64,000 bases of DNA from Planctomycetota bacterium (GCA_965223265.1 OZ244999.1:6816001-6880000); one strand, 5' to 3'. Positions 19,107 to 62,976 are shown, counted from the stretch's first letter. Notes: generated by a model from the letters alone, not told the origin. Numbers and translations: made by a program.

Positions 19107-19141
19107 CGAGCGACGCTCCAAAACATTTGCGAAACTCCGCC

Positions 19142-22848: not shown

Positions 22849-22972
22849 GAATGAGCTGCGATCAGGGGCGAATCACGAGGCTCTGAGGCGTTTCCTTGAG
22901 CCCTGAACGACGGCCATAACTTCAATCAATTAAAAGTGTTAAAAGTTTCCCCTGCACCCGCACCGCCGTCTT

Positions 22973-22988
22973 TGGCCCGGGGTTTGCT
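22973..22988 (+). promoter_or_regulatory. sigma54 -24/-12 promoter for gspD operon
   Basis: TGGCCCG-GGGT-TTGCT matches TGGCACG-N4-TTGCW spacing exactly; AT-rich tract upstream at about 22917-22948. Confidence 0.75.
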
Positions 22989-23124
22989 TGGCCGTACTGA
23001 AGCCGGCTCCCTGGCCCGCCGGCGGGGGCAGAACACTCAGACAATTCCCATCCGCGCCGAGCCGCGCCGGAACAACCCAGTTCATGATACCGCGCCGTCG
23101 CCGCTGCACGGTGAGGAGTCTCTA

Positions 23125-25833: not shown

Positions 25834-25951
25834 GCTGGCTGCAATTCTGACGTAGAATAAACATGTTGATCGCGGCAGAGGGTTGACGCGAGGCTGGTAA
25901 TGGAGCGCTCCGCCCGTCCGCACTCGGACCGAATGGAACAGCGAACAATCG

Positions 25952-27652
25952 ATGAAACTGAGCGTCTTTGAACACCTCGTCGACGAAGGACTCATCGATC
26001 GCGAGCAGCTCGATGAGTGTCAGGCGATCGTCAGCGAAAGCGGCGAGCCGCTCGACCGTGTGCTGCGCGCGAAAGGGTTCGTTTCGGAGGCAGCACTCCT
26101 CGACGTCCTGAGTCGTGTCCTACGGCTCGAGCTGCGAGAGGATATCGAAGAGATCGAGGTACCGCGCGTCTTCGTCCAGCGGGTGCCGGCACAGTTCGCG
26201 CGCAACTACAATCTCGTGGGACTGTCACGCGACAATGGCACGTTCCACGTCGCCACGTGCGACCCGCTTGATATCCATCCGATGGACGAGCTCTCCAGCT
26301 TGCTCGAGGCCGACGTCGTCCCCGTGTTGTCACCGCGAGCGAAGATCACGTCTCTGATCAATCGCGCCTACCAGCGCTCTTCGACCGACGTCGACGAGCT
26401 GCTCGACGGCATCGAAGAAGATGACATGATCAGCCTGACGAAGATCGTCGACGAGTCTGAGGACGTCCTCGACATCGCGAACAAGCCGCCGATCATCAAG
26501 CTGATGAATACGATCCTCTTCGAGGCTCTGAAGATTCGCGCCAGCGACATCCATCTGCAGCCTTACGTGGATCGTCTCCAGGTACGCTACCGGATCGATG
26601 GCATTCTCTACGAAGCCAAGGTGATCCCGAAAAAGTTCCAAGACGCGATCATTTCGCGTGTCAAAGTGATGGGCAAAATGGACATCGCGGAGCGTCGACT
26701 GCCGCAAGACGGACGCACGACGATCAAGGTCGGCGACGGCGAGGTGGACGTGCGTATCTCTTCGGTGCCGACCTCCTCCGGCGAGCGCATCGTTTTTCGT
26801 CTGCTGGACAAGAGCGCCCGTCTCTACCGCTTGCACGAAATCGGACTCGGCGAAAGCAGCCTCGACTTGGTGCGCAATCTGATCAGCTATTCCCACGGAA
26901 TCGTTCTGATCACAGGCCCAACCGGAAGCGGCAAAACGACCACGCTCTACGCCGCGCTCGCTGAGATCAATTCCGAAGAAAAGAACGTCATCACGATCGA
27001 AGACCCAATCGAGTACAACATTGACGGCATCAGCCAGATTCAGGTTTCGAACAAGAAGGGCCTGACGTTCGCCTCGGGACTGCGCTCGCTCATGCGGCAG
27101 GACCCCGACGTCATGATGGTCGGTGAGATTCGAGACGGCGAGACCGCGAACATCGCCGTGCAGGCAGCGAACACCGGCCACCTCGTCTTCTCGACCTTGC
27201 ACACCAACGACTCCACCGGCGCGATTAGCCGTATGATCAACCTCGGCGTCGAGCCTTACCTCACAGCTTCGGCAGTGATCGGCGTCATCGCCCAGCGTCT
27301 CGTGCGCCTGATCTGTCCGCACTGCCGCGAGCCCTTCGAAGCGACCGACGCCCAGCTTGCTGAGCTTGGTGTCGAGCGTGGTCAGCTCGACAACAATCAG
27401 CTTTGGCGCGGCCATGGCTGCGAGCACTGTCTTGGTCGTGGACTCTTCGACCGGACCGCGATCTACGAAATCCTCGTCATCGATGAGGACGCACGCGACC
27501 AGATCATCTCCCGCACCAGCGCGTCGGTGATGAAGCAGTCTGCCGTACAGCGAGGCTTGCGGACGCTCCGCATGGACGGGGCGCAGCGGGTCGTCGAGGG
27601 CAAGACGACCATTGAAGAGGTGTTCCGCGTCACGCAGCTCGACGTTTTCTAA
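25952..27652 (+). CDS. gspE: type II secretion ATPase GspE/PulE
   Basis: ASDIH, ERRLPQDGR, GPTGSGKT, TIEDPIEY, RQDPDVMMVGEIRD, STLHTND, CPHC..CEHC. Confidence 0.96.
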   Translation: MKLSVFEHLVDEGLIDREQLDECQAIVSESGEPLDRVLRAKGFVSEAALLDVLSRVLRLELREDIEEIEVPRVFVQRVPAQFARNYNLVGLSRDNGTFHVATCDPLDIHPMDELSSLLEADVVPVLSPRAKITSLINRAYQRSSTDVDELLDGIEEDDMISLTKIVDESEDVLDIANKPPIIKLMNTILFEALKIRASDIHLQPYVDRLQVRYRIDGILYEAKVIPKKFQDAIISRVKVMGKMDIAERRLPQDGRTTIKVGDGEVDVRISSVPTSSGERIVFRLLDKSARLYRLHEIGLGESSLDLVRNLISYSHGIVLITGPTGSGKTTTLYAALAEINSEEKNVITIEDPIEYNIDGISQIQVSNKKGLTFASGLRSLMRQDPDVMMVGEIRDGETANIAVQAANTGHLVFSTLHTNDSTGAISRMINLGVEPYLTASAVIGVIAQRLVRLICPHCREPFEATDAQLAELGVERGQLDNNQLWRGHGCEHCLGRGLFDRTAIYEILVIDEDARDQIISRTSASVMKQSAVQRGLRTLRMDGAQRVVEGKTTIEEVFRVTQLDVF

Positions 27653-27710
27653 GCCGATCGCCGCGGCGGTCGGCAACCACGGTCTTTTCGATTTCCATAG
27701 GCACACGGAC

Positions 27711-28952
27711 ATGCCCGTCTTCGAGTATCGCGCGCTCACCAAAAGTGGCAAAACGACGAAAGGCATCGTCGACGCCGACACCGCCAAGGCGGCGCGTGCG
27801 CAGCTGCGGACCAATAACGTCCACGTCACCGATATCCGCGCCCTCGCAGCGCGCAAAACGAAGGGGAAGGGTGATCAGGCCAACAAGAAAAAGAAGCTGC
27901 AGCTGGATCTGACGCTCGAGCGCGGCCTCAGCACCCGCGATCTCGCCACCTTCACGCGGCAGTTCTCGACGCTGCTGCGCAGCGGGATTCAGCTCGCCGA
28001 CGCACTGCGCGCTCTGGTCGAGCAGTGCGAACAGCGCCACTTCGAACAGATCCTCCGGAACGTCAAGGAGGAGATCACCGCTGGCAACAGTCTGGCCGAA
28101 TCGCTCGCGAAACACCCGCGCTATTTCTCGGACCTCTACGTCAACATGGTCCGCGCCGGCGAGGCGAGCGGCAACCTTGATCAGGTACTCGAGCAGCTAG
28201 CCGCGTATATTCAAAAACAAGCGAGCCTCAAGGGTAAGGTGGCCGCCGCCATCACCTATCCCGCGATCATGGTCGTCGTCGGGACGTTCGTCGTCATCTT
28301 TCTCATGACGTGGGTCGTGCCGCGGATCACACAGGTGCTGCAAGATCGCAATCAGCCGTTGCCGCTCGTCACCGAAACTCTCGTCGCCATTTCTGGTTTC
28401 TTGGTCGACTATTGGTGGATCCTGATCATTGGGGCTGCCAGCGTCTTTTTCTTCACCAAGGCGGTGCTAGCGACGGACGCGGGACGTCTGAAGTTCGACA
28501 CGGGGCTCCTACGCTTTCCTATCTTCGGACAGCTCTTCGCCAAGCAGGCGATCTCGCGCTTCGCAATGACTTTCTCTACGCTTCTCAAGAGCGGCCTTCC
28601 TGCCCTCGACGCACTCAAGATCGTCTCGCTCGTAGTCAACAATGCGCGGCTGACGCAAGTGATCAATGACATCCACGGGCGCATCCTCGAGGGTGCTGAC
28701 ATCGCTACGCCGATCAAGAGATCGAAGGTTTTTCCGCCCATGGTTGGATACATGGTGTCGGTCGGCGAGCAGAGCGGTCAGCTCGAAGAGATCCTCGATC
28801 GTCTCTCGGAGAGTTATGAGGAAGAGCTCGACTTCGCGATTCAGAAAGTTACCGCTTCGATCGAACCGATGATTATCATCGCACTGGCCGTCGTAGTAGG
28901 ATTCATCATTGCGGCTGTCCTCCTGCCGCTCCTCGATTTCTCAAACGTGTGA
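27711..28952 (+). CDS. gspF: type II secretion inner-membrane platform protein GspF
   Basis: MPVFEYRAL start, FTRQFSTLLRSGI, GEASGNL, YP, GEQSGQL, IEP motifs. Confidence 0.95.
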   Translation: MPVFEYRALTKSGKTTKGIVDADTAKAARAQLRTNNVHVTDIRALAARKTKGKGDQANKKKKLQLDLTLERGLSTRDLATFTRQFSTLLRSGIQLADALRALVEQCEQRHFEQILRNVKEEITAGNSLAESLAKHPRYFSDLYVNMVRAGEASGNLDQVLEQLAAYIQKQASLKGKVAAAITYPAIMVVVGTFVVIFLMTWVVPRITQVLQDRNQPLPLVTETLVAISGFLVDYWWILIIGAASVFFFTKAVLATDAGRLKFDTGLLRFPIFGQLFAKQAISRFAMTFSTLLKSGLPALDALKIVSLVVNNARLTQVINDIHGRILEGADIATPIKRSKVFPPMVGYMVSVGEQSGQLEEILDRLSESYEEELDFAIQKVTASIEPMIIIALAVVVGFIIAAVLLPLLDFSNV

Positions 28953-50104: not shown

Positions 50105-52072
50105 CCGAACTTCCAAAGAAAGGCACTCGTAAATTCAGCGCAGGTCCGGCTTTGCGATGCACCGCAATCGTCAATTCTGACTACATGCGCTCGGTCAGCG
50201 ACACGCGCAGTAAACGAAGCGCTTGTCGCTGTTCGGGCGACGGCTCGGTGATCACCTCGAACTCAGCCTTGGAGCTCAGCGGGGAAGCGACGCGATTGCG
50301 AGCGATCGTGGCCAAGTCCTGCAGCAGGGTTCGAAAACTATGGGCACACTTGCCGTCGAGAGTGCGCTTGGTCCAGTCCTTCCACTTCGCCATCTCGGAG
50401 CGAACGGCTGGTGTCACCGGCGACTTTCTCCGGTTCACTTCGTCGGCGAACTCATCGTGAAAGAGCATCGGCTTTAGCGCTTGTTGCATGTGCCACTGGA
50501 CGTAGTAGGCGAGCATGCAGAGAAATACGTGAGCTCTCACACGTTTCTCTGCATAGTGAAAAATTGGACGCACTTCGAGATCGACCGTCTTCATACTGCG
50601 AAAAGCCCGCTCCACCTTGCTGAGGCTTTTGTATGCCCTCACGGCTTGCCGGGCACTTAGCTTTCGTTTCGGCACAGTCGTTCGCAGGACGTAGAATCCG
50701 TCCAAGGCGGCTTCACGTTCGATTCGTGGTGCATTGCGCCGGAAACGAAACGTGCTCTCTGCGATCGTCAGGTCAAACAGCTTACCCACCTTGAATCGAC
50801 CTATGACTTTACCGACTCGAATGCCAATCTTCGCCCGGCTCCGAAGTCTTCCTGCTTTGACTGCGGCAGCGACTTTCCAGAGGTGCTTTTCGGTAGCCTG
50901 CAGCAGCTCCTCGCGCTTTCTCCTGCGCTCTTCGGCCAGGAGAGGGTTACGGCAAACGATGAGGCGTTCGTTGGGAAACGAAGGATCATCTATTTCGGCG
51001 AGATTCTGCTGGTCAAAGAACTCAAGCTGAATGCTTCCCGACTCTTTCAGCTTTTGGATCTGGGGCGCTCGCAGCGCTGTGATCCAGTCCACACCGTCAA
51101 TGTCTTTGAGCTCTTCGCGAATTCGCGCCGTGGTGATCATGCCGCGATCTCCCACGAGAGTCATTCGCGACAGTTCGAAATCTTCTCGAAGTCGCTTCAC
51201 CTGGGCTCCGAGAGTCTTGGGGTCTGCAGTGTTCCCCTCAAACACTTCGACAGAAACTGGGCAGCCGTCTTTGTTCGTCAAAACGCCAAATACGATCTGC
51301 GCTTTATGCTTTTTCTCGTCGCGGCTGTGACCCCGTCTTGCCAGCGAACAGCAGCGGCCTTCAAAGTACGTCGAAGTTAAATCGTAGAGCGTTAGCTCAC
51401 CGTCTTTGAGGTGACGCTTGGCCAACTTGACTTGGATCTTTCTCTGACGCTCAACGAGCCAATCCATCGCCTTGTAGAGATCGTTTTCATCTACGTTCTC
51501 CAGCCCCAGTAGCTGCGGAATCGTCGTCGCCTTCCAGGCCCTTGTTGTAGCTAGCTTCGACTGTGGAGAAATAATCCTCGCGGCGATCATCGCCAAGGCG
51601 CACTGGCGCTCACTACTCGCCCGCCCATCAAGGATCGTGTCGAGACCAAGATTGCGCATGGTGCCCAGCACCGCGGCGACGTGACCGTGGCTGCGAGTGG
51701 AGAGAATCTTGAAAGCGTCACTCGCAGAGACGAACTGCTCTCCCTTCAAGGCGCGGCGAACGAGGTCGATCACTTCCAGCGGCAAATGAGAGAGATTGGC
51801 CAGCGTGACGTTACGAACCTTCTTGCCGTCGCGATATGTGCGTCGAAGGAGGTGGCTCTGATAGGTCTTACCCTTGTATTTTCTCTTCGTTGTGACCACA
51901 TGGGCCGATCCACCTCTCTTCGCCATGAGCAGCATTATGCGCATCTTGACGTGAAAGGCAAGGAGGAATCCTCCATTTTAGTGACTACATCTCGGGGCGC
52001 AAAAAACTCTGCAACCTCCTACGTTGTCAATCCTTGCGGCCGAAACCCGCTCAGGCAAGCGTGGAAGTTCGG
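50105..52072 (-). mobile_element. complete IS1634-family insertion sequence (1968 bp)
   Basis: TIRs CCGAACTTCCA / TGGAAGTTCGG; TTTAGC target duplication at 49542-49547 and 52073-52078 around the whole composite. Confidence 0.93.
50181..51944 (-). CDS. IS1634 family DDE transposase
   Basis: TLANLS, YDLTSTYFEG, GHSRD, FEGNTAD, VGDRGM, DGFYVLRT, YKSLSKVERAFR, RPIFH. Confidence 0.95.
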   Translation of the reverse strand: MRIMLLMAKRGGSAHVVTTKRKYKGKTYQSHLLRRTYRDGKKVRNVTLANLSHLPLEVIDLVRRALKGEQFVSASDAFKILSTRSHGHVAAVLGTMRNLGLDTILDGRASSERQCALAMIAARIISPQSKLATTRAWKATTIPQLLGLENVDENDLYKAMDWLVERQRKIQVKLAKRHLKDGELTLYDLTSTYFEGRCCSLARRGHSRDEKKHKAQIVFGVLTNKDGCPVSVEVFEGNTADPKTLGAQVKRLREDFELSRMTLVGDRGMITTARIREELKDIDGVDWITALRAPQIQKLKESGSIQLEFFDQQNLAEIDDPSFPNERLIVCRNPLLAEERRRKREELLQATEKHLWKVAAAVKAGRLRSRAKIGIRVGKVIGRFKVGKLFDLTIAESTFRFRRNAPRIEREAALDGFYVLRTTVPKRKLSARQAVRAYKSLSKVERAFRSMKTVDLEVRPIFHYAEKRVRAHVFLCMLAYYVQWHMQQALKPMLFHDEFADEVNRRKSPVTPAVRSEMAKWKDWTKRTLDGKCAHSFRTLLQDLATIARNRVASPLSSKAEFEVITEPSPEQRQALRLLRVSLTERM

Positions 52073-52109: not shown

Positions 52110-53630
52110 TCATGGCTCAGCCGACAGGCTCGCCAGTCGAACGTAGACATCGCGCAGTCGCTCCTCCACCTCGCCGTGCACCTCATGCACGCGGTCATAG
52201 GTCGCTGCGGCAGCGCGGTTCGGGGCGACGGTTCGCGCTGTCGGCTGCAGCTTGCTCATGGCAGTCCGCACGTCCGGGAACAGCCCGGCGGCAACGGCTG
52301 CAAGACACGCACTCCCGAGACCGGTGGCCTCGTCGTGCTGTGGCAACGCCAGAGGCACACCAAAGACATCCGCGCGAATCTGCGCCCAGAGCTCACTGCG
52401 CGCACCACCGCCGACGAGCCGCAGCTGTTTCACGTCGACTTTTGCGTCGCGAATGCGCTCGAGTAGCCGGCGCGAGGCAAACGAGCTGCCTTCGAGAATC
52501 GCACGGTAAATGTGAGCCAAACCGTGTTGCGGCGATAAGCCAACCAGCGCGCCGCGTTCTGCTGGCTCCCAGTTCGGAGCGCGGCTACCGACGAGCGTGG
52601 GGAAGAAAAGGAGCTGCTCGGCGCCGGCGTCGAGACGTGCAGCCTCGGCGTCAAGTCGCGCCAGAAGCGCCGCACGCGACGCCCCTGCTGCCTCACTGCC
52701 ACCAAACCGATCGCAGAACCACTCGACACAGCCGCCACTAAGCGACATCGGTCCACCCGCCAGCCAGCACCCGTCCACGGCGTGGGGATTGACGAGAAAA
52801 CCCGCCTGAGGATCGAGCACCGGTGACGACGTGCACGCAAAGACGACGTCGGTCGTGCCAATCACGCTGACCGCGTCACCCGGGGCGACGACCCCGGCGC
52901 CGAGTGCCGCGACCGTCCCATCCGGCCCCCCCACCGCAACGGGAAGTCTCGCCTCGAGTCCAAGGTCGGCCGCGGCGTCGGGAGAGAGACCGCCAGCGAC
53001 CTGGGCTGCCGCGTGTATCGGCGGGAACTTGCTCGATTCGAGACCGAGGACAGAGAAGAACGGCTCGTGCCACACCGACTTGGCGACGTCCGCCAGCAGC
53101 GTGTAGCCTGCGTGCGTGCGGTCCGTCACCATGGCGCCGGTGAGCTGAGCCACAAGATAGTCCTTCAAGCTGAGGAATTTGTCCGTGCGCGCATAGAGGC
53201 TCGTTTCATGGCGCTGCAGCCAGAGTACAAGACAAGCGACGCGTTCGGGATCGATGCGCTTGCCGGTCGCTTCGTAGACGCGCTGCTCCCCGAGCTTCTC
53301 GCGCACGAAGTCGGCTTCGCGGCAGGCGCGCTTGTCGATCCACGTCAGCGCGGGACGGAGAGGACGGCGCTGATTGTCGACGGCGACCAGTCCGAGCTGC
53401 GCGCTGACGCCGATCGCGGCGATGCGAGCTGCGTCGATGCCGCTGAGCGCCTGACGCACAGCATCCTTCATGGCGGCGAGCGCGGCGCGTGGCTCGAGTT
53501 CGGACTGCGCTGCGGCCACCGCGGAGGAGTACGGCGACTCAGCGAGTGCGGAGCACACGCCGTCCGTTGCGATCACGGCCGCTTTGACTGCCCGTGTACC
53601 AGCGTCGATCGCCAGCATCAGGTCGCGCAT
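52110..53630 (-). CDS. FGGY-family carbohydrate kinase (xylulokinase-like)
   Basis: AIDAGT..VKA, W.DKR, KDYL..LTG, GGPDG, IGTT, FFPTLVGSRAP, RAILEG, VGGGARS. Confidence 0.92.
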   Translation of the reverse strand: MRDLMLAIDAGTRAVKAAVIATDGVCSALAESPYSSAVAAAQSELEPRAALAAMKDAVRQALSGIDAARIAAIGVSAQLGLVAVDNQRRPLRPALTWIDKRACREADFVREKLGEQRVYEATGKRIDPERVACLVLWLQRHETSLYARTDKFLSLKDYLVAQLTGAMVTDRTHAGYTLLADVAKSVWHEPFFSVLGLESSKFPPIHAAAQVAGGLSPDAAADLGLEARLPVAVGGPDGTVAALGAGVVAPGDAVSVIGTTDVVFACTSSPVLDPQAGFLVNPHAVDGCWLAGGPMSLSGGCVEWFCDRFGGSEAAGASRAALLARLDAEAARLDAGAEQLLFFPTLVGSRAPNWEPAERGALVGLSPQHGLAHIYRAILEGSSFASRRLLERIRDAKVDVKQLRLVGGGARSELWAQIRADVFGVPLALPQHDEATGLGSACLAAVAAGLFPDVRTAMSKLQPTARTVAPNRAAAATYDRVHEVHGEVEERLRDVYVRLASLSAEP

Positions 53631-53835: not shown

Positions 53836-54651
53836 CTACCGAACCTTCGCCTCGAGAAGCATCCCGTCTGGATCGATGCTCTCGCGGATGAGAGCTACTT
53901 GCTCCGGTGTCGGCGGGGGCGTCTCCTCGATCTCGTCAGGAATCAAAAGATCAAACCCGGTCTTCTGCTTGACGGTGTCGACGGCAACGCCCGGGTGTAC
54001 GGATTCAAGCCGCATGCGTTTCGACTCTGGGTCGAACCCAAGAACAGCGTACTCCGTGAACACCTTCGCGGGCCCGCCGCCAGGCAGGCCGGCCTTCTCA
54101 CGAGCATCACCACCGTCGAGAAAACCGACGCCCGATATGAAGTCCACCTTCTCGACAAACTGCCGAGGGCTGTGCTCCATCGTGATGAAGGTACGCTTGG
54201 CGAACGCCGCGTGGTCGGTCTGCGCGAGGCATCCTACAAGCCTCACCTTTGGCGACTCGTAGGGACCGATGCAAACGATATTGAGGTTGCCGTACATGTC
54301 GATCTGGGCGCCGGAGATCGCACCGACGTCCATTTTGCCGCACTTGAAAACGTCGAGCGCCTCCTGCTCAGGAATCTGTGCCTTCGAGCGCCAGTGGACC
54401 AGCTCGTAGTCATCACGCAACGAGGACGGGAGCGTCCTCAGATCCGGATCGATCAGCGGACCCAGCATCGGCACGAGGTTCGGCGCATGCGAAAGTTGCG
54501 CCAGCCGACAGGCGACGAGCGGGATTCCGACGGCGAGAATGAAGGCCCGGCCGCCGGTGCCGATACCGATGAAAACGACCTCCTCGTCCCGCAGGTGCGA
54601 AGCGTACGCAACCGCCATGAGTTCTTCGGTGCGATAATCGTCGATCACCAT
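53836..54651 (-). CDS. CoA-transferase-fold beta subunit (GctB-like) lacking the catalytic Glu
   Basis: FIGIG, GAQIDMYGNLN, FVEKVDFISG, MRLESVHPGV; PMLGP in place of the ESG motif. Confidence 0.88.
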   Translation of the reverse strand: MVIDDYRTEELMAVAYASHLRDEEVVFIGIGTGGRAFILAVGIPLVACRLAQLSHAPNLVPMLGPLIDPDLRTLPSSLRDDYELVHWRSKAQIPEQEALDVFKCGKMDVGAISGAQIDMYGNLNIVCIGPYESPKVRLVGCLAQTDHAAFAKRTFITMEHSPRQFVEKVDFISGVGFLDGGDAREKAGLPGGGPAKVFTEYAVLGFDPESKRMRLESVHPGVAVDTVKQKTGFDLLIPDEIEETPPPTPEQVALIRESIDPDGMLLEAKVR

Positions 54652-55553
54652 CAGCTGACCTCCTTTGGCCTCTCGAGCCCCAAGAGCCGCTTCACCCCTA
54701 TGCGTTCGAGGTAAGCGAAGTGATCGTCGACGCCGAGCACGTTGTGCTCAAGCCACGACGCGAACTCTTCTGCTGATTTAGTCCGCTCGTGATACTCCCG
54801 GAGAAAGTCGAGGTCGTAGTCGTAGCGGCAGTCGCAAGCTGTTGGGTGGGCGCCGAATGGCGCTTCGACGATGTGGTCGACGAAGAACTTCGGCAAAATC
54901 GTCAAGTGTGGACGTTCACTCACCGCCTCTTCGCTCACAACTTGTTCAACGGAAACGATCACCTTCTTCGCCGACTTAGCGATCAAGGTGTCGACCTCAT
55001 TGTCCAGCTCACGGATCGGATCCAACTGAACGTTGCCGACGAAGTCGGCGGTGTGAGCATGGATCAACGCGAAGTCCGGACGAAAAGCTGGCAAGACGCA
55101 AAATTTCTCGCCGGTGAAGGGGCAGTCCATGCGCCGCACACGATCGTTGTGAGCCTCGATACCTGAACCGAGCGGCGTTTTCGAAGGGTAGAACGTCCAG
55201 CCCATGCTTCCAGCACGGAAGGCGTCAATCGCGGTCGTCTCGGAGTGCTCGTAAATCTTCAGCTCCCCACGCTCAACCGCGCGGCGATAGTGATTCGCCA
55301 GGCCGATCATGGCTAGGCCAATGTAGGAAGTCTCGACCGCTTGGACGCAGCCCGCGCCAATGAGCAGATCCATATCGATGGCGTTGTTCCAGCCAAGAAG
55401 TGTCAGGCCTCGTTTCTTCTGCCTGATCATCTCGTAGATCATCGCCATCGGGTGGCGACGAATGAGCGACCCCCCGATCGCGACCGTCGCACCGTCGGGA
55501 ATCAACTCGACGGCGCGAGCGAGTGTCGTGCGTTTGTCCTTTTTCGCGGTCAT
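54651..55553 (-). CDS. CoA-transferase-fold alpha subunit (GctA/IpdA-like)
   Basis: DGATVAIGG, RRHPMA, PDFALIHA..AD..GN, VIVSVE, EAPFGAHPT; start at 55553 or 55562. Confidence 0.88.
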   Translation of the reverse strand: MTAKKDKRTTLARAVELIPDGATVAIGGSLIRRHPMAMIYEMIRQKKRGLTLLGWNNAIDMDLLIGAGCVQAVETSYIGLAMIGLANHYRRAVERGELKIYEHSETTAIDAFRAGSMGWTFYPSKTPLGSGIEAHNDRVRRMDCPFTGEKFCVLPAFRPDFALIHAHTADFVGNVQLDPIRELDNEVDTLIAKSAKKVIVSVEQVVSEEAVSERPHLTILPKFFVDHIVEAPFGAHPTACDCRYDYDLDFLREYHERTKSAEEFASWLEHNVLGVDDHFAYLERIGVKRLLGLERPKEVS

Positions 55554-55587
55554 GTCCTGCAAGCCTTACCTGTCTGATCGAACCAAG

Positions 55588-55655
55588 GTGGCAGGCACAG
55601 TCTGTGTGCCGCCCGCTTTTGCTATTGGCTACGGCACACAGAGTGTGCCTGCTAC
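55588..55655. repeat. inverted REP doublet (REPIN/BIME-like)
   Basis: GTGG-CAGGCACAGTCTGTGTGCCG, 20-nt spacer, CGGCACACAGAGTGTGCCTG-CTAC. Confidence 0.85.
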
Positions 55656-55662
55656 TCTCCGC

Positions 55663-56469
55663 TCAGTCGATCTTGGCGCTCAGAAGGAGGCCCTCCGGGT
55701 CGACTCGCCCGCGCAGCACTTCGAGTTCCGAGGCCATCGGCGCCGTGAGCGTCGCTACGCCATCGACCCCCAGCGGCTCAAAACTCATCAGTTGACGCAA
55801 CTCGCTCGGATCGAAGCCGGGAAGGCAGTTCTTCGCACGCATGCGTTTCGTCTCGTCATCAAACTCGAACACCGCGCCGTTCGTCACGACGCGCCAGGGA
55901 CCCTGAGGCGGCAACCCCACACGCTCGCGCGCGCCAGGACCAGAAAGGTACCCGGCGCCTGAAATGAAGTCGACTTGTTCGACGAACGTTCGCGGCGAAA
56001 GATCATTGACGATACAGTTCCGTGCCGGCGAAGCCAAGTGGTCGGTCTGCGCGATCGGGCCGACGAGTCGTACTTTCGGACGGCGTTCGGTGCCGATGGC
56101 GACGACGTTGAGATTGCCGTAGACGTCGACCTGCGAACCAGAGACGAAGCTGACGGTTATCTTGCCGAGCTTGAAGCAGTCGAGACACTCTTCGACAGGG
56201 ATCTGCGCTTCGCACGGCCACGAGATCAGCTCCGAGTCCGTGTAGGATCGGGGCTGCGACGCGGGGTCAGGATTGACGATCGGGCCAAGCATGAGCGTGA
56301 GTCCCGGGGCGTGTGTCAGCCGGGCCAACTGACAGGCGGCGGTCGGAATGCCGACCGCCAGGACGAACGCTCGCCCACCTGTACCGATGCCAACGAACGC
56401 CACATCGGTCGAGCGCAACTCCCGAGCGATCGCGATCGTCATCAGCTCTTCGATCGTCGCGGGCGTCAC
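55663..56469 (-). CDS. CoA-transferase-fold beta subunit lacking the catalytic Glu
   Basis: GTG start after GAGGAG; FVGIG, LMLGP, GSQVDVYGNLN, FVEQVDFISG. Confidence 0.87.
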   Translation of the reverse strand: MTPATIEELMTIAIARELRSTDVAFVGIGTGGRAFVLAVGIPTAACQLARLTHAPGLTLMLGPIVNPDPASQPRSYTDSELISWPCEAQIPVEECLDCFKLGKITVSFVSGSQVDVYGNLNVVAIGTERRPKVRLVGPIAQTDHLASPARNCIVNDLSPRTFVEQVDFISGAGYLSGPGARERVGLPPQGPWRVVTNGAVFEFDDETKRMRAKNCLPGFDPSELRQLMSFEPLGVDGVATLTAPMASELEVLRGRVDPEGLLLSAKID

Positions 56470-56470
56470 G

Positions 56471-57358
56471 TCAGCTCCTCCCACCCTTGGCCGGATCGTT
56501 TCGCGCACCGATCTTCTCGAGGTAGTCGGCATGACTCCCAGGACGCCGGACATACTCGTCCACGAATGCGTCGAATGTAGCGGCGTTCTTCGAGGCAGCA
56601 TAATAGAGCGCGGTGAAATCGAGATCGTAGTCGTAACGCAGATCGCAAGAACACGGGTGGGCGCCCTGCGGCGCCTCGACCACTGCGTCGACGAAAAACC
56701 CGGGCAGAATTGTCGCCTGTGGTCTCTTCATGACGGTCTCCGTCGACACGATTTCCTCGACGCTGACGATCACGCGTTTGGCACTTCGGGCAATGAAGAC
56801 ATCAGCAAAATTGTCCATGAGCACACGCTCGTCGATCTGAACGTTACCCTTCGCATCAGCAGTGTGCGCGTGCAAGAGCGCGACGTCTGGCTCTGCGGCA
56901 CGCAACGCTGCCATGCGTTTGCCAGTGAACGGACACACGATCTCGCGCGTTTCCGCCTCGAAGTTCATCAGGCCGCTACCGAGCGGGCCGTTCGAAGGGA
57001 TGAACGAGATGCCCATGGCCCCGGCACGAAATCGCTCAAGTGCGGTGTTCTCCGAGTCCTCGACGATGTCGATCGAACCGGCTTCTGCGGCGCGCCGATA
57101 GTTGAGCGCTAGACCGAAGCGCCCCATACCAACGTACGACGTCTGCACAGAGCGGACGCAGCCGGCGCCGACCAGAAGGTCGAAGTCGATGCCGTTGTTC
57201 CAGCCGCTCAGTCGTAGATCGCGTCGGCCTTGGCGCACGAGCTCGTACACCATCGCCATCGGATGGCGACGCTGGGAGTGGCCGCCGAGCGCCAACTGCG
57301 CTCCATCGCCGATCGTACCGACGGCCTCCTCAAGCGACGTGATCTTCTTTGCTTCCAT
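56471..57358 (-). CDS. CoA-transferase-fold alpha subunit (GctA/IpdA-like)
   Basis: DGAQLALGG, RRHPMA, PDVALLHA..AD..GN, EAPQGAHP. Confidence 0.88.
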   Translation of the reverse strand: MEAKKITSLEEAVGTIGDGAQLALGGHSQRRHPMAMVYELVRQGRRDLRLSGWNNGIDFDLLVGAGCVRSVQTSYVGMGRFGLALNYRRAAEAGSIDIVEDSENTALERFRAGAMGISFIPSNGPLGSGLMNFEAETREIVCPFTGKRMAALRAAEPDVALLHAHTADAKGNVQIDERVLMDNFADVFIARSAKRVIVSVEEIVSTETVMKRPQATILPGFFVDAVVEAPQGAHPCSCDLRYDYDLDFTALYYAASKNAATFDAFVDEYVRRPGSHADYLEKIGARNDPAKGGRS

Positions 57359-57429: not shown

Positions 57430-57511
57430 TCAACAAAGGCTCCGTCGAAGTGCCCTATCAAAAAGGCTCAAAAAGGCCCCATCAAAAAGGCCCCATCAAA
57501 AAGGCTCCGTC
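57430..57511. repeat. short tandem repeats of TCAAAAAGGC overlapping the ThDP gene stop
   Basis: Four TCAAAAAGGC units plus one degenerate TCAACAAAGGCTCCGTC. Confidence 0.8.
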
Positions 57512-59184
57512 CAGACGTTCTCATCAGGGTCGATGAGAACGTCGAGCAAGTACGTGCCGTTATGGGCAAGCGCCCTTTCGACCGCTGGCTGCAAGTCCCC
57601 GGGAGCTTCGACGCGCTCACCGTCGGCCCCGAAACCGCGCGCCACCTGTGCGAATTGGATGTCCGTAAAATCGACGCCGATGTAGCGCGGCCCGAAGTAC
57701 GTCAGCTGCTCCTGCTTGATGTTGCCGTAAGCCATGTTGTTCATGACGATGATGAGAACGGGCGCCTTCTCGCGCACTGAAGTCTCGATCTCGCTGACGC
57801 ACATCCCAAGGGAACCGTCACCGATGATGCAGGCGACGGGATGTTCTGGACGTGCGAGTTTGGCCGCAATTGCAGCTGGCAAGGCGAACCCCATGTTGCC
57901 GAAGCCAACCGGCTTGATGTAAGTCCCTGGCTCGAAAATCGGCAGCAAGTGAGTCCAAATCCCAGGGTTGCCCGCGCCGGCTGCGATGATCGTCTGGCGC
58001 GGTAGAGCCGCGCGCAGCGCCTGCATGAAAAACTGCGGCTTGATCGGCTGAGCGGTCGCGTACTCTCGCTTGAAGATCTTCTTCTCCCACTCCGCTTGCG
58101 CCGCCTCGAGCTCTTTGACGCGCTGGCGGCGCACCTCGAGGCCCGCAGCTGCCGGTGCGCAGCCCGCGAGGGCCGCGAGGAGCTGCGTGGTGACGACGGT
58201 GGCGTCGCCGACAACGCCGACTTCAACGGGATAGTGCCGACCGATGTTGGCAGCGTCCACATCGACCTGTACGAGGCGACGCGGGAGCTGCAGCTTCCAG
58301 CGTCCGGTCGACGGCGCATTGAGGCTGTTACCGATCGCCAGCACGACGTCGGCCTCCTCGAGCACGCGGCCGGTGACCTCGGTACCGTGGCGACTGCGCG
58401 GTCCGAAGACCAAGCGGTGGTCCGCCGGGACCACCCCAACGCCGTTGTACGTCGTCACTAGAGGCGCTTCCAACAGCTCGGCGAGTTGGACCAGCTCGGC
58501 GGTGCCGCGCGCCACGAGCGCGCCCCGCCCCGCCCAGATCGCCGGCCGCTGCGCGTCAGAGAGCAGCTCGGCGGCAGCTGCGATCGCCGCGGCATCGCCT
58601 GCGGGTCGCGCTTCCGTGCGGTAAACAAGCGGTGTCGACGGAACGTAGTCTACAGTGGCATCCTCGAGAACGTCGCGCGAGAAGTCGAGGTGTACCGGTC
58701 CTGGGTTCCCCGTCACAGCACGGCGGAACGCCTCGTGGACGGCATCCGGAATCCGTTCGGCAATGGTGACCAGACAGGACCACTTCGTGAACTGTCCGAG
58801 CAGCTTGCAGTGATCTGCCTCCTGCGCGTCGTCACGCTGAAAATCACGCGCACGATTGTTGGCCGTGAGCACGAGCATTGGGCTCGAATCGCGCTGCGCC
58901 CCGCCGATTCCCGTGACCAGGTTCGTGACACCTGGCCCAGTGGTCGCGAGGCAGACGCCAGGGCGACCTGTCAAACGTCCGTAGGCGTCAGCCATGCACG
59001 CCGCACCGCGCTCGTCGCGTGTCGTGATGAAGCGGATCTCGCTGGCGTCAAACAGCGCGTCCATAATGGCGAGATTCTGACCACCCGGAACGCCGAAGAC
59101 AAACTCAACGCCTTCTCGACGCAAACAATCGACGACGGCCGCACCGCCGCGACCTTGAACTCGATCTGGAAGAGATTCTCCCAT
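57496..59184 (-). CDS. thiamine-diphosphate-dependent enzyme (acetolactate synthase-like superfamily)
   Basis: FGVPGGQN, TRDERGA, TTGPGVTN, GPVHLD, GFGNMGFALPAA, GDGS...NN motif; start uncertain. Confidence 0.9.
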   Translation of the reverse strand: MGESLPDRVQGRGGAAVVDCLRREGVEFVFGVPGGQNLAIMDALFDASEIRFITTRDERGAACMADAYGRLTGRPGVCLATTGPGVTNLVTGIGGAQRDSSPMLVLTANNRARDFQRDDAQEADHCKLLGQFTKWSCLVTIAERIPDAVHEAFRRAVTGNPGPVHLDFSRDVLEDATVDYVPSTPLVYRTEARPAGDAAAIAAAAELLSDAQRPAIWAGRGALVARGTAELVQLAELLEAPLVTTYNGVGVVPADHRLVFGPRSRHGTEVTGRVLEEADVVLAIGNSLNAPSTGRWKLQLPRRLVQVDVDAANIGRHYPVEVGVVGDATVVTTQLLAALAGCAPAAAGLEVRRQRVKELEAAQAEWEKKIFKREYATAQPIKPQFFMQALRAALPRQTIIAAGAGNPGIWTHLLPIFEPGTYIKPVGFGNMGFALPAAIAAKLARPEHPVACIIGDGSLGMCVSEIETSVREKAPVLIIVMNNMAYGNIKQEQLTYFGPRYIGVDFTDIQFAQVARGFGADGERVEAPGDLQPAVERALAHNGTYLLDVLIDPDENVWTEPF

Positions 59185-59206
59185 GCTTCTGCCAAACACC
59201 TCCGCG

Positions 59207-59992
59207 TTAGTCCCTCGGCAAGTAGACACCGGACGGGTCGATCACCTCGCGCAGAAGTCGAACGTCTTCTGCACTCGGACCGACTGTCGTCGGTGCCTCG
59301 TCTGGCAGGAGTAAATCGAATCCCGTGTTCTCTTTCACCTCGTCGAGACTGACTCCGGGATGCAGCGATTCGAGCCGCATGCGCTTCGTCGCGTCGTCGA
59401 ACCCCAAGATGGCGAGGTTGGTGATCACGCGCACAGGTCCCGCGCCGCGCAGTCCGTTCGCCTCACGCTCACCAGCCCCGCCGAGGTGACCGGGAGTCGT
59501 GACGTATCCGACGCGGCTGGGAAACTTGCGCCGCTCGTGCGGCACGATCACGACGACGCGTTTAGCGAGCGACGCGATGTCGTTGGCGCCGCCACTTCCC
59601 GGTAGGCGCACCTTCGGCCGGCGGTAGTCGCCAATCGCCGTCGAGTTGATGTTGCCGTACTGGTCGATTTCTGCCGCTCCCAGAAACCCCAAGTCCACGA
59701 AACCCCCTTGGAGAAGACTCAGCGCGTAGTAGAGCCCTGAAGTCTTGGTGCAATCTGTCATCAGACAAAAGTCGCCGACGCCGGTCGCCAACGACTCCGG
59801 CTGCGCATCGATGATCCCCGACTCGAAGAACATGGTGACGCCGGGGGCGTGCGTATACTTGGCGAGGTAGGCGGCAATCATCGGCAGACCGGTACCGATG
59901 ATGGCGACTTCGCTGTCACGGATCTCGCGCGCCGCGGCGACCGCCATCAATTCTTCGCGACTACACTCCTGAATCTGTTGCTGACTGCTCAT
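59207..59992 (-). CDS. glutaconate CoA-transferase-like beta subunit with catalytic Glu
   Basis: IGTGLP, FFESGII, FLGAAEIDQYGNINST, LPGSGGANDIAS. Confidence 0.9.
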   Translation of the reverse strand: MSSQQQIQECSREELMAVAAAREIRDSEVAIIGTGLPMIAAYLAKYTHAPGVTMFFESGIIDAQPESLATGVGDFCLMTDCTKTSGLYYALSLLQGGFVDLGFLGAAEIDQYGNINSTAIGDYRRPKVRLPGSGGANDIASLAKRVVVIVPHERRKFPSRVGYVTTPGHLGGAGEREANGLRGAGPVRVITNLAILGFDDATKRMRLESLHPGVSLDEVKENTGFDLLLPDEAPTTVGPSAEDVRLLREVIDPSGVYLPRD

Positions 59993-60178
59993 GACTCGAC
60001 TTAAGCTCGAAGCTTCTCTAACGGACCTCTTGAAGACAACCGCGCCAGCGTCGAATAGCGGCATCGAACACAGCGTCGAACGGCGACGCGACTCGAGCCG
60101 AGGACTTCAGTGCAGCGCGTCTGAGCGTGAGGTCTCGAATGGTGGCTGTATCGCATCTTGATCCGAAGCACTGAGCCG

Positions 60179-61084
60179 CTAGTATCCGAGATACGGATCT
60201 GCACGCAGAGACGTCAGCCGTCGCAGGCCAATCTTGTCGAGGTAGCTCCAGTGGTCCTCGACGTTGTAAACGAACTCGTCAAGGTACTCCTGAAACGACT
60301 CCTCCTGTCTGGACGCATCCCAATAGTGTTGGATGTGCTCGCTATCATAGTTGTAGTAACGAAACATGCCGGCGGGATGGGCGCCGAAAGGCAACTCGAC
60401 AACGGCGTCAACCACGAATGACGGCAGGATGGTCGCTTCGGGGCGCCGCGCGATCTGGCGTCGGTCGACGACCTCTTCCACAGAGACAACCACCTTGCGC
60501 GCTGCGCGCGCCTGCTCGTCGATAATCGAAGTCATACCGAAAATCTGCGTGTTTCCTTCGCGATCGGCCCGGGCCGCGTGAATGAACGCAACGTCCGGCT
60601 GCACGGCACGCACTGAAACGTACGACTCACCCGTGAACGGGCACTGCGACATCCTATGCTTGTCGGCGTCGAAGCTCGTCACTTTCAGAATGTCGGTCCC
60701 CGCCATGACTTTCGTCGGCATCGACGACAGTCCCAAGGATCCCGCCATGAATCGCGATGTGATCCCGAAGTGACTGTAGTCCTCGACTTCCAATTGACCG
60801 CTCTCGACAGCGCGTGAAAAGTTTCGACAACGACCGAAACCTTCGAACATATAGTTCGACAGACGGGTCCGCCGCAGACGTCCGGCGCCGCTGAGAAGAT
60901 CGGCCGCCCAGCATTCGCCCATCGAGCTCAATTCGAGATCCTTCGCGCCTTGGCGAATGATCTCGCGGACAAGTGCGATCGGCGCGAGAGAATGCGCGAA
61001 GCCGCTGAACGTCAGATGACTACCATCCTTGACGACGGCCGCAGCCTCAGTGAGTGAAATCAGCTTGTCAGGAGCGGCGGTCAT
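60179..61084 (-). CDS. glutaconate CoA-transferase-like alpha subunit
   Basis: KLISLTEA, REIIRQG, EDYSH, PDVAFIHA.RAD.EGN, LPFGAHP. Confidence 0.9.
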   Translation of the reverse strand: MTAAPDKLISLTEAAAVVKDGSHLTFSGFAHSLAPIALVREIIRQGAKDLELSSMGECWAADLLSGAGRLRRTRLSNYMFEGFGRCRNFSRAVESGQLEVEDYSHFGITSRFMAGSLGLSSMPTKVMAGTDILKVTSFDADKHRMSQCPFTGESYVSVRAVQPDVAFIHAARADREGNTQIFGMTSIIDEQARAARKVVVSVEEVVDRRQIARRPEATILPSFVVDAVVELPFGAHPAGMFRYYNYDSEHIQHYWDASRQEESFQEYLDEFVYNVEDHWSYLDKIGLRRLTSLRADPYLGY

Positions 61085-61308: not shown

Positions 61309-62343
61309 ATGCCATTCCGAATGATCTGTATCGCGGTGCCCTTTTTCGCCTTTGGCTGCACCGATGGCGGTGGCGACAACGCGAGCGAGACATTCACCGT
61401 GCGCATGGCGACGCTCTTCGGGAAGGAACATCACTTGGCGCAAAAGCTCGAGTGGATGAAGACTGAACTCGAGAAACGAAGCGGTGGACGTTTTCAGTGC
61501 AAGGTCTTTCCTGGGGGTACGGTCGGCGGCGAGAAGGAGAATCTCGAAGACCTTCTCAGCGGCAACCTCGAAGTGATGAATGGCGCCGGAAGCTACTTCT
61601 ACCACTTCGTTCCTGAGGCGAGCGTTCTGGAGTTACCTCACTACCGTTGGCAGAGCAAAAAGCAGGCATGGGAAACTATCCGTGCCTATTGGCCGAAGTT
61701 TGCAGAGGTGTCGGAGAAGAAAGGCTACACCCCCATCGGACTCGATATCCGGGACTACTGGGGCGTCTTTTACAAAACCCCCGTCGACTCCCTAGCCGCC
61801 GTGAAGAACGCCAAGTTCCGCTCCGTCAACGCCGACCTGTGGATCAAGCTGACGGAGGTCTACGGCGCGGTCCCCAACCCGATTCCCTACGCCGACGCAT
61901 ACATGGCGTTCAAGACCGGTGTTGCGGAGGGCTCGCTCGGCTCGGTGACGGGCGCCGTCGCTGCGAATTGGCACGAAGTCCTGAAGTGCTTCTTCGACAC
62001 CCGGCTCGTCTTGAGCGAAAGTCTTATGCTGGCGTCGACCAGCTGGCTCAAGGGGCTGCCGGAAGATCTACGGACTTTGTTTCTCGAGGTGTCGCGCGAG
62101 AGTGAAGAGTTTAACTTCAAAGCGGTCGAGAAGCAGTACGCCGCCAACAAGCAGGAGATGCTCGACGCCGGTGTCAAATGGATCAAGCGTGAAGACATCG
62201 ACATGAGCGAACTCGACGCGAAAGTACCGGCCTGGCGTGACGAGTACATGCAGGCGAAAGGCCCGGAAGTCTTTGCGTTCTACAAGGACTGGCTGTCGCA
62301 CGTGGAAGAATACGCAGCCAAGTTCAATGCTGAGAACGGCTAA
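61309..62343 (+). CDS. TRAP transporter substrate-binding protein DctP (lipoprotein)
   Basis: Lipobox AFG-C, FPGGTVGGE, KFRS, GAVPNPIPYADAYMAFKTGV. Confidence 0.9.
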   Translation: MPFRMICIAVPFFAFGCTDGGGDNASETFTVRMATLFGKEHHLAQKLEWMKTELEKRSGGRFQCKVFPGGTVGGEKENLEDLLSGNLEVMNGAGSYFYHFVPEASVLELPHYRWQSKKQAWETIRAYWPKFAEVSEKKGYTPIGLDIRDYWGVFYKTPVDSLAAVKNAKFRSVNADLWIKLTEVYGAVPNPIPYADAYMAFKTGVAEGSLGSVTGAVAANWHEVLKCFFDTRLVLSESLMLASTSWLKGLPEDLRTLFLEVSRESEEFNFKAVEKQYAANKQEMLDAGVKWIKREDIDMSELDAKVPAWRDEYMQAKGPEVFAFYKDWLSHVEEYAAKFNAENG

Positions 62344-62400: not shown

Positions 62401-62976
62401 TTGACGCCCAGCGCCGCGCACCTCAACACCTACACGAAGGTCACGCGGCGGCTCGTCGAAAGCGTGGCGGTGCTGCTGTTCGTCACCGTCTTGTGCCTAC
62501 AGGCGGTCAACATCTTCCTGCGCTATGTCCCCGCACTGTCGCCGTGGATGTGGGTGGAGGATTTGACCAAGTACGCGCTCATATGGAGCTTCTTTCTCCT
62601 CTGGCACCTCGCTGATCGCAGCGGTAGTCACTTCTCGGTCGATGTGCTGACATCGAGGCTGCCGCCGAAAGGGCGGAAGTTTCTCGACTGCGTCGGACAT
62701 GCCATTGCGATCTTCTTCGCCGCAGCCGTGATCTACAGCGCCGTTCGATTCATTCCCACCGGCATGCAGTACCCGACGAACTCGTTTTCGTGGATCCCGA
62801 TGGGAGTGATCTACTTCGTGATTCCGGTGGGGCTCAGCCTCGTCCTCATCGAACGCGTGCTGCTTCTCGTAGCTCGCCTGAGGCGGACAGCTGACGAAAG
62901 CGCGGCGCCGCCTGGTCTCGACGTGGAGAGTTCAACTGACGAGTTAAGCGACTCCTCAGGAGGCGTTCCAACGTAA
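62401..62976 (+). CDS. TRAP transporter small permease DctQ
   Basis: Four TM helices, WVEDLTKY..IW, HFSVD. Confidence 0.88.
   Translation: MTPSAAHLNTYTKVTRRLVESVAVLLFVTVLCLQAVNIFLRYVPALSPWMWVEDLTKYALIWSFFLLWHLADRSGSHFSVDVLTSRLPPKGRKFLDCVGHAIAIFFAAAVIYSAVRFIPTGMQYPTNSFSWIPMGVIYFVIPVGLSLVLIERVLLLVARLRRTADESAAPPGLDVESSTDELSDSSGGVPT

Follow-up and report, generated by a model that had tools for sequence, protein, structure and literature searches.

This study concerns an operon on the minus strand of a 64,000-nucleotide stretch of a Planctomycetota bacterium genome (GCA_965223265.1, OZ244999.1:6816001-6880000; the whole stretch is referred to as the window). Two of its three pairs of subunits with the class I coenzyme A (CoA) transferase fold lack the catalytic glutamate of the beta subunit and carry a new glutamate in the alpha subunit. 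Our favoured reading, to which we assign a probability of about 0.55, is that these two pairs, A1-B1 and A2-B2, are non-transferase enzymes acting on the acyl-CoA product of the third, canonical pair A3-B3, in which the alpha Glu would serve as general base. Both hallmarks of the family are lost, the new active-site Glu is fixed and a genuine CoA-transferase is a constant neighbour; taken together, these make a standard role in CoA transfer unlikely.

All six subunits are encoded on the minus strand and score above the Pfam cut-off for PF01144 (CoA_trans), and the 9.18-Mb single-contig genome holds no PF01144 genes besides these six. Transcription runs in the order A3, B3, thiamine diphosphate (ThDP) enzyme, A2, B2, A1, B1 and FGGY kinase, and the segment 53836-57358 corresponds exactly to pairs 1 and 2, four of the six genes. 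Both of these pairs are intact and translationally coupled, with a Shine-Dalgarno sequence before the start of B1 and before that of B2. The stop codon of A1 overlaps the ATG of B1 (TGATG), while the B2 open reading frame (ORF) is open to 56601 and its GTG at 56469 comes one nucleotide past the A2 stop, behind the Shine-Dalgarno sequence GGGAGGAG. A1 and A2 are 53% identical, and B1 and B2 49-51%. The true start of B3 may be an internal Met (MSSQQQ...).

The glutamate swap had been proposed in an earlier reading made from this DNA by a model (the sequence-only reading), and its motifs could all be recovered. B3 carries FFESG, which had been matched to the catalytic Glu motif of GctB; phmmer indeed aligns FFESG with IVESG, and GSGGAND with GSGGANG, of 1poi_B. 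Translations of the other beta subunits show PMLGP and GCLAQTDH in B1 and LMLGP and GPIAQTDH in B2, the ESG Glu and GSGGAND being gone from both; against the IVESG of GctB, B1 is one residue shorter here, with nothing acidic at the canonical position. The alpha subunits read RRHPMA and EHSET in A1, RRHPMA and EDSEN in A2, and EDYSH in A3. The claim that the alpha Glu aligns with that of IpdA also stood up to comparison with solved structures, since Glu108 of A1 and Glu103 of A2 fall on the sole residue that differs between 6co6 (Glu) and 6coj (Ala). IpdA chains of 6co6 and 6co9 have Glu here and that of 6coj has Ala, which means that the depositors mutated this residue. We take it to be Glu105, the catalytic base of IpdA. 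By alignment, the same position is Gln in GctA, Gly in AibA and His in A3; A3 itself clusters with those alpha subunits whose beta partners carry the catalytic Glu. An Arg-Arg doublet before a conserved Pro is common to A1, A2 and IpdA (RRHPMA versus RRKPMA).

How far the two changes go together was seen in 79 loci (cited below by numbers such as L014) from contigs representing one genome per species, found with a profile of 24 Glu-less beta subunits. On calling alpha and beta ORFs in them, 92 adjacent pairs were obtained, including the three of the window, and 91 could be scored, L043 being left out on account of a gap in the alpha column. An alpha Glu is present in none of the 63 pairs whose beta subunit has the catalytic Glu (the position is Asn in 31, His in 29 and Leu in 3) and in 26 of the 28 pairs whose beta subunit lacks it, the other two (L014 and L021) having Cys. 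A conserved polar residue at the alpha position of canonical partners is expected of an active-site position. Across these pairs, the swap is a family-wide, all-or-none trait. Database searches gave 1621 relatives of B1 at E<=1e-10, and in the best 119 of these the canonical column never holds Glu (deletion in 117, Ala in 2); an acidic residue within two columns of the canonical site occurs in a single one of the 119.

A separate small lineage of Glu-less beta subunits, with the motifs LNTADVI and GGAASAH, was also noticed at L014:7155-8750, L021:6259-8053 and L043:9504-10789. It too is a repurposed subfamily and may lie nearer to AibAB. Other Glu-less lineages are represented by L020, L044 and L077.

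On a maximum-likelihood tree of 97 beta rows, B1 and B2 lie inside a clade of 24 Glu-less rows with a support of 98, and B3 in a Glu-bearing clade of 6 rows that includes L001, L003, L069, L040 and L002. Three types can be told apart in the Glu-less core clade. Type I, that of the window, has PML-GP and GxLAQTD in the beta subunit and RRHPMA and xEHSETT in the alpha subunit; type II has IYW-GNLL and GCLAQ[TP][DE], with RR[QST]P and RDFSETA or HDYSESA; type III has TILLAGW and G[PS]IL[QLH]PE, with IYQxPMA and VDYPE. B2 adjoins type III on the tree, at a support of only 80 and with a long-branch warning.

Residues were regarded as clade-specific when present in at least 85% of the core clade and at most 10% of canonical pairs. 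Glu108 of the alpha subunit is kept in 25 of 25 core-clade members (100%), and beta His147, which directly follows the remodelled loop (GCLAQTD-H), in 100% of the 24-25 members as well as in 114 of the 119 best database homologues. Other clade-specific beta residues are Ser113, Val139 and a Gly-rich insertion, GTGGRAF, carrying Thr32 and Ala36. The alpha Glu, beta His147 and the insertion with Thr32 and Ala36 are present in both window pairs. In the alignment, no other beta Glu occupies the canonical position, an eventuality that the sequence-only reading had held against its own proposal, and the core clade compared with canonical pairs shows no clade-specific conserved acid in the beta subunit, which at this level argues against a substitute beta nucleophile.

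The suggestion that the pairs form a new subfamily agrees with the state of the databases, where no curated family covers them. NCBIfam scores are all under the cut-off (A1 63 bits against 128.5, B1 23 against 244) and B2 has no match; relatives are named only "CoA-transferase" or "glutaconate CoA-transferase subunit B", and the ESM Atlas places them only in generic "CoA-transferase" clusters. The full-text literature, a search that did not extend to subscription journals, holds papers on IpdAB and steroids and on AibAB and no description of the clade or the operon. The pairs are best filed as a new subfamily of repurposed CoA-transferase-fold enzymes. The clade is distinct and widespread, and closer in sequence to GctAB and AibA than to IpdAB.

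The operon is syntenic in distant organisms belonging to unrelated phyla. In metagenome relatives with the same gene order the pairs are 73-84% conserved. With the ThDP gene written as TPP, the order is TPP-A2-B2-A1-B1-FGGY in L080 (B1 identity 84%), TPP-A2-B2-A1-B1 in L082 and B2-A1-B1 in L084. In L083 a lactate-permease-family (LctP) gene is followed by A3-B3-TPP-A1-B1-FGGY, and a Bacillota metagenome-assembled genome (MAG; L001) has LacI-A3-B3-TPP-A1-B1-FGGY and then an ABC ATPase. L003 reads DctPQM-A3-B3-A1-B1-FGGY, without a ThDP gene. In these syntenic loci, then, the core consists of A1-B1 and A3-B3 together with the kinase and the ThDP enzyme, and A2-B2 is optional.

In Alphaproteobacteria and Erwinia typographi (L007-L010, L036, L040 and L069), type II and III pairs occur with class III CoA-transferases (PF02515), those of the Alphaproteobacteria scoring under the NCBIfam cut-off. 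Their neighbours include a ThDP enzyme of NF004772 (935 bits, cut-off 673), DhaK/DhaL, LacI regulators, sugar-type ABC or tripartite ATP-independent periplasmic (TRAP) transporters, MaoC hydratases, and GFO/IDH/MocA and SDR oxidoreductases. Types I, II and III and a canonical pair are all found in the one locus of Faunimonas (L069). For the 16 genome loci that hold a core-clade pair, context was counted within the flanks fetched; class I with Glu, class III PF02515 or PF02550 was taken as a true CoA-transferase. Such an enzyme is present at 13 of the 16 loci, as would be expected if the pairs work on acyl-CoA; a ThDP enzyme is found at 8 and an FGGY or Dak kinase also at 8.

Three neighbourhoods deserve mention in their own right. 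A methylmalonyl-CoA-mutase-family gene directly adjoins B1 in L082 (10829-12403, minus strand). In a Gaiellaceae MAG (L002:2443-5178) a 911-residue protein with two PF02515 stretches adjoins the ThDP enzyme and the type I and canonical pairs. A type III pair in a Bacillota MAG (L052:9096-20657) lies beside Fe-ADH, a 4-hydroxybutyryl-CoA-dehydratase-like HpaB protein, an AcetylCoA_hydro-type CoA-transferase, thiolase, crotonase, 3-hydroxyacyl-CoA dehydrogenase and an FGGY kinase, a context that hints at hydroxylated C4/C5 acid substrates.

The ThDP enzyme and the kinase, examined for clues to the substrate, both fall under every NCBIfam equivalog cut-off. For the ThDP enzyme, the best NCBIfam model is TIGR00118 (408 bits, under the cut-off of 538) and the best PDB matches are BbmA and acetolactate synthase (ALS); orthologues scoring 680-803 bits take the same operon position in L001, L080, L082 and L083. 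The FGGY kinase scores 317 bits with the XylB model, under its cut-off of 380. In L001, L080 and L083 the gene right after B1 is its orthologue (424-426 bits), and L003 and L081 have partial orthologues. DctP is only remotely related to solved TRAP binding proteins, at no more than 83 bits. No oxidoreductase is encoded in the operon. Candidates considered and dropped for lack of evidence were ring cleavage of the IolD or cyclohexanedione type, the HACL/formyl-CoA cycle, and isosaccharinate, tetronate, deoxyribonate, glycolate and itaconate/mesaconate-type acids as substrates.

On the favoured reading, a small hydroxylated carboxylate would be imported by the TRAP system and turned into its CoA thioester by the canonical A3-B3. 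The Glu-less pairs would then carry out enolate-type chemistry on this thioester, with the alpha Glu, and possibly also beta His147, as general base. The reaction would most likely be a C-C cleavage, whether by retro-aldol splitting or, on the model of IpdAB, by retro-Claisen hydrolysis; decarboxylation and isomerisation would be less likely. The resulting 2-oxo or 2-hydroxy product would be handled by the ThDP enzyme, and the ketose or triose formed would be phosphorylated by the FGGY kinase. Our preference for C-C cleavage would fit the downstream genes: small oxo or hydroxy fragments are what one would expect a ketose/triose kinase and an ALS-like ThDP enzyme to handle, and the operon has no oxidoreductase, from which the route would also be redox-neutral. 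A bolder version, which we put forward only tentatively and regard as rather doubtful, is that the window pairs are founding members of a large clade with a new C-C reaction carried out by an alpha-Glu/beta-His dyad, for instance the retro-aldol or retro-Claisen cleavage of a polyhydroxy-acyl-CoA. They would then serve an undescribed CoA-dependent, redox-neutral route that starts from a small hydroxy-carboxylate or a sugar acid and ends in a phosphorylated ketose or triose, and that is shared horizontally among Bacillota, Actinomycetota, Alphaproteobacteria, NC10 and the host.

In Rhodococcus jostii and Mycobacterium tuberculosis, IpdAB (ScdL1L2; PDB 6co6, 6co9, 6coj and 6con) acts in steroid catabolism as the ring-C hydrolase of COCHEA-CoA, and PMC6678751 describes it as a hydrolase that cleaves COCHEA-CoA by retro-Claisen hydrolysis. 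The window pairs resemble it in having the class I CoA-transferase fold in two subunits, no catalytic Glu in the beta subunit, the aligned alpha Glu and RR-x-PMA. The label "IpdAB-like" given to them by the sequence-only reading holds only for the Glu swap, and fails for overall similarity, for His147 and for the steroid context. The loop is GVRGAPGN in IpdB and GCLAQTD in B1. Unlike the KstR2-type steroid setting of IpdAB, the neighbours here are a CoA-transferase, a ThDP enzyme, a sugar kinase and a TRAP or sugar transporter, and no steroid-pathway families were seen in the window.

Several observations weigh against the favoured reading. A1 matches IpdA at 97 bits and B1 matches IpdB at 64, below the 131 and 121 bits to GctA and GctB, and IpdB has Asn at the position of His147; a catalytic role of the alpha Glu in A1 and A2, which it may well have, is carried over from IpdAB. 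The Glu/no-Glu label requires only one change on the beta tree, and with this single split the covariation amounts to one evolutionary event, not 26 replicates; no IpdB row was taken into the tree, which thus does not compare the origins of the swap in IpdAB and in the present clade. No CoA-transferase was found in the fetched flanks of 3 of the 16 loci (L006, L030 and L059), and L082 has neither A3-B3 nor the kinase within 10 kb. How the steps are ordered, what the substrate is and what part the ThDP enzyme plays are guesses.

The pairs could still be CoA-transferases in which the covalent nucleophile has moved to alpha Glu108, with acyl-anhydride and Glu-CoA thioester intermediates and with GTGGRAF replacing the GSGGAND oxyanion loop, an explanation that we consider unlikely. 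In its favour, GctAB of Acidaminococcus fermentans (1poi) ranks first or nearly first among the solved relatives of each of the six subunits (151 bits for A2 and 189 for B3, besides the scores given above for A1 and B1), sharing the PF01144 fold, the subunit sizes and the side-by-side alpha-then-beta gene order; most of the CoA-transferase core residues are retained, and the clade is nearer to GctAB than to IpdAB or AibB. The new Gly-rich segment appears precisely in the clade that lacks GSGGAND, and two or three CoA-transferases do occur in some pathways. However, it is only A3-B3 that keeps the ESG Glu and the GSGGAN loop, while B1 and B2, with their one-residue deletion, have neither and fall outside the canonical GctAB enzymes; in the alpha subunits, the Gln of GctA is replaced by Glu in A1 and A2. 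As 13 of the 16 loci already have a canonical or class III enzyme, this explanation would put 2-3 transferases into an operon of seven genes for which a second acid is not apparent. We know of no CoA-transferase with an alpha-subunit nucleophile, and none was met with in the full-text literature searched. The one characterised enzyme with the swap, IpdAB, is described as a hydrolase, as noted above.

That the pairs are acyl-CoA thioesterases, the alpha Glu activating water and freeing CoA from a product such as formyl-, glycolyl- or acetyl-CoA, is in our view improbable. Hydrolases were among the options of the sequence-only reading, the pairs adjoin a CoA-activating enzyme, and replacing the catalytic Glu of GctB by Asp reportedly makes GctAB an acyl-CoA hydrolase. 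Nevertheless, a thioesterase next to a CoA-transferase wastes a thioester that would otherwise be recycled as donor, two different Glu-less pairs sharing one locus (three in Faunimonas, L069) are hard to account for, and the strictly kept distinct His and the insertion suggest more specific chemistry.

We give a similarly small chance to cofactor-free decarboxylation of the mono-CoA ester of a dicarboxylic acid, after the manner of AibA/AibB. To our knowledge, every member of the GctAB family so far characterised binds mono-CoA esters of dicarboxylates, and DctP-type TRAP transporters take carboxylates. AibA/AibB of Myxococcus xanthus (PDB 5mzw-5n03) is a 3-methylglutaconyl-CoA decarboxylase, also given as a decarboxylase in PMC7756340, and resembles the window pairs in having a repurposed fold and a beta subunit without the catalytic Glu; AibA is moreover the top solved match of A1 (5mzw_A, 139 bits, 1.7e-39). 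The resemblance does not extend to the swap position, which is the Gly of AibA already mentioned, nor to the beta subunit, AibB matching B1 at only about 42 bits, nor to the operon, which has no aib-type neighbours and no HMG-CoA synthase or AibC-like genes. The Glu-less pairs with alpha Cys (L014 and L021) also branch outside the core clade. Finally, that the pairs are catalytically dead structural or regulatory partners assembling with A3-B3 or the ThDP enzyme is very improbable, for although both hallmark catalytic motifs are lost and the pairs cluster with active-looking enzymes in every case, the new Glu and His are invariant across phyla at or beside former active-site positions, a sign of remodelling and not of decay, and type III pairs occur with no canonical pair nearby (L030 and L059).

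The genes of the operon and its surroundings are given in Table 1. The TRAP transporter genes diverge from the operon, of which the FGGY kinase is the last gene, and a transposase gene borders it on the downstream side. No B1 homologue (E<=1e-20) was found in 40 genomes of the host's family, order and class, which together with the flanking transposase indicates horizontal acquisition; the operon looks like a horizontally acquired island.

Table 1. Genes of the operon and its flanks, in window coordinates
Feature	Position	Strand	Description	Matches (E-value)
DDE transposase (DDE_Tnp_1)	50181-51944	-	flanking transposase	PF01609 (1.5e-14)
FGGY carbohydrate kinase	52110-53630	-	xylulokinase-like	FGGY_N, FGGY_C
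B1	53836-54651	-	beta subunit without catalytic Glu, pair 1	PF01144 (2.1e-18)
A1	54651-55562	-	alpha subunit of Glu-less pair 1	PF01144 (1.5e-34)
B2	55663-56469	-	beta subunit without catalytic Glu, pair 2	PF01144 (4.4e-9)
A2	56471-57358	-	alpha subunit of Glu-less pair 2	PF01144 (4.8e-33)
ThDP-dependent enzyme	57496-59229	-	acetolactate-synthase-like superfamily	TPP_enzyme_N, _M, _C
B3	59207-60064	-	beta subunit with catalytic Glu	PF01144 (3e-32); 1poi_B (1.2e-54)
A3	60179-61084	-	canonical GctAB-like class I CoA-transferase alpha subunit	PF01144 (4e-28)
DctP	61309-62343	+	TRAP transporter	PF03480
DctQ	62401-62976	+	TRAP transporter	PF04290
DctM	62985 to past the window end (about 1280 bases into L160)	+	TRAP transporter	PF06808

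Beyond the 3' end of the window, a 237-residue ORF (L160:1264-1977, about 260-980 bases past that end) shares bases with the end of dctM and matches nothing in Pfam at 1e-5; it may be spurious or else one more gene of the operon. After it come DUF1501/PSD1/PSCyt2 genes, as is typical of Planctomycetota-like genomes. Elsewhere in the window, 10182-12209 (plus strand) encodes a 675-residue fusion of CM_2 chorismate mutase, PDT prephenate dehydratase and DAHP-synthase-I, an unusual three-way fusion of the aromatic amino-acid pathway. A Ser/Thr protein kinase followed by an FHA-GAF-sigma54-activator-HTH_8 regulator is encoded at 17334-21046 (plus strand), and downstream of these a secretin/T2SS-E/T2SS-F cluster is located at 22936-28952.

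If the favoured reading is true, the labels "glutaconate CoA-transferase subunit A/B" would be wrong for thousands of database proteins. The clade would provide a second, independent test case after IpdAB for the re-use of the CoA-transferase fold in other thioester chemistry, and it offers a clear pair of residues for mutation, the alpha Glu and the beta His. Its tight link with a CoA-transferase, a ThDP enzyme and a ketose/triose kinase would point to a catabolic pathway that is missing from current pathway maps, for which Erwinia typographi, Shinella sumterensis, Microvirga, Azospirillum rugosum and Faunimonas pinastri are cultured carriers that may serve in pathway work.

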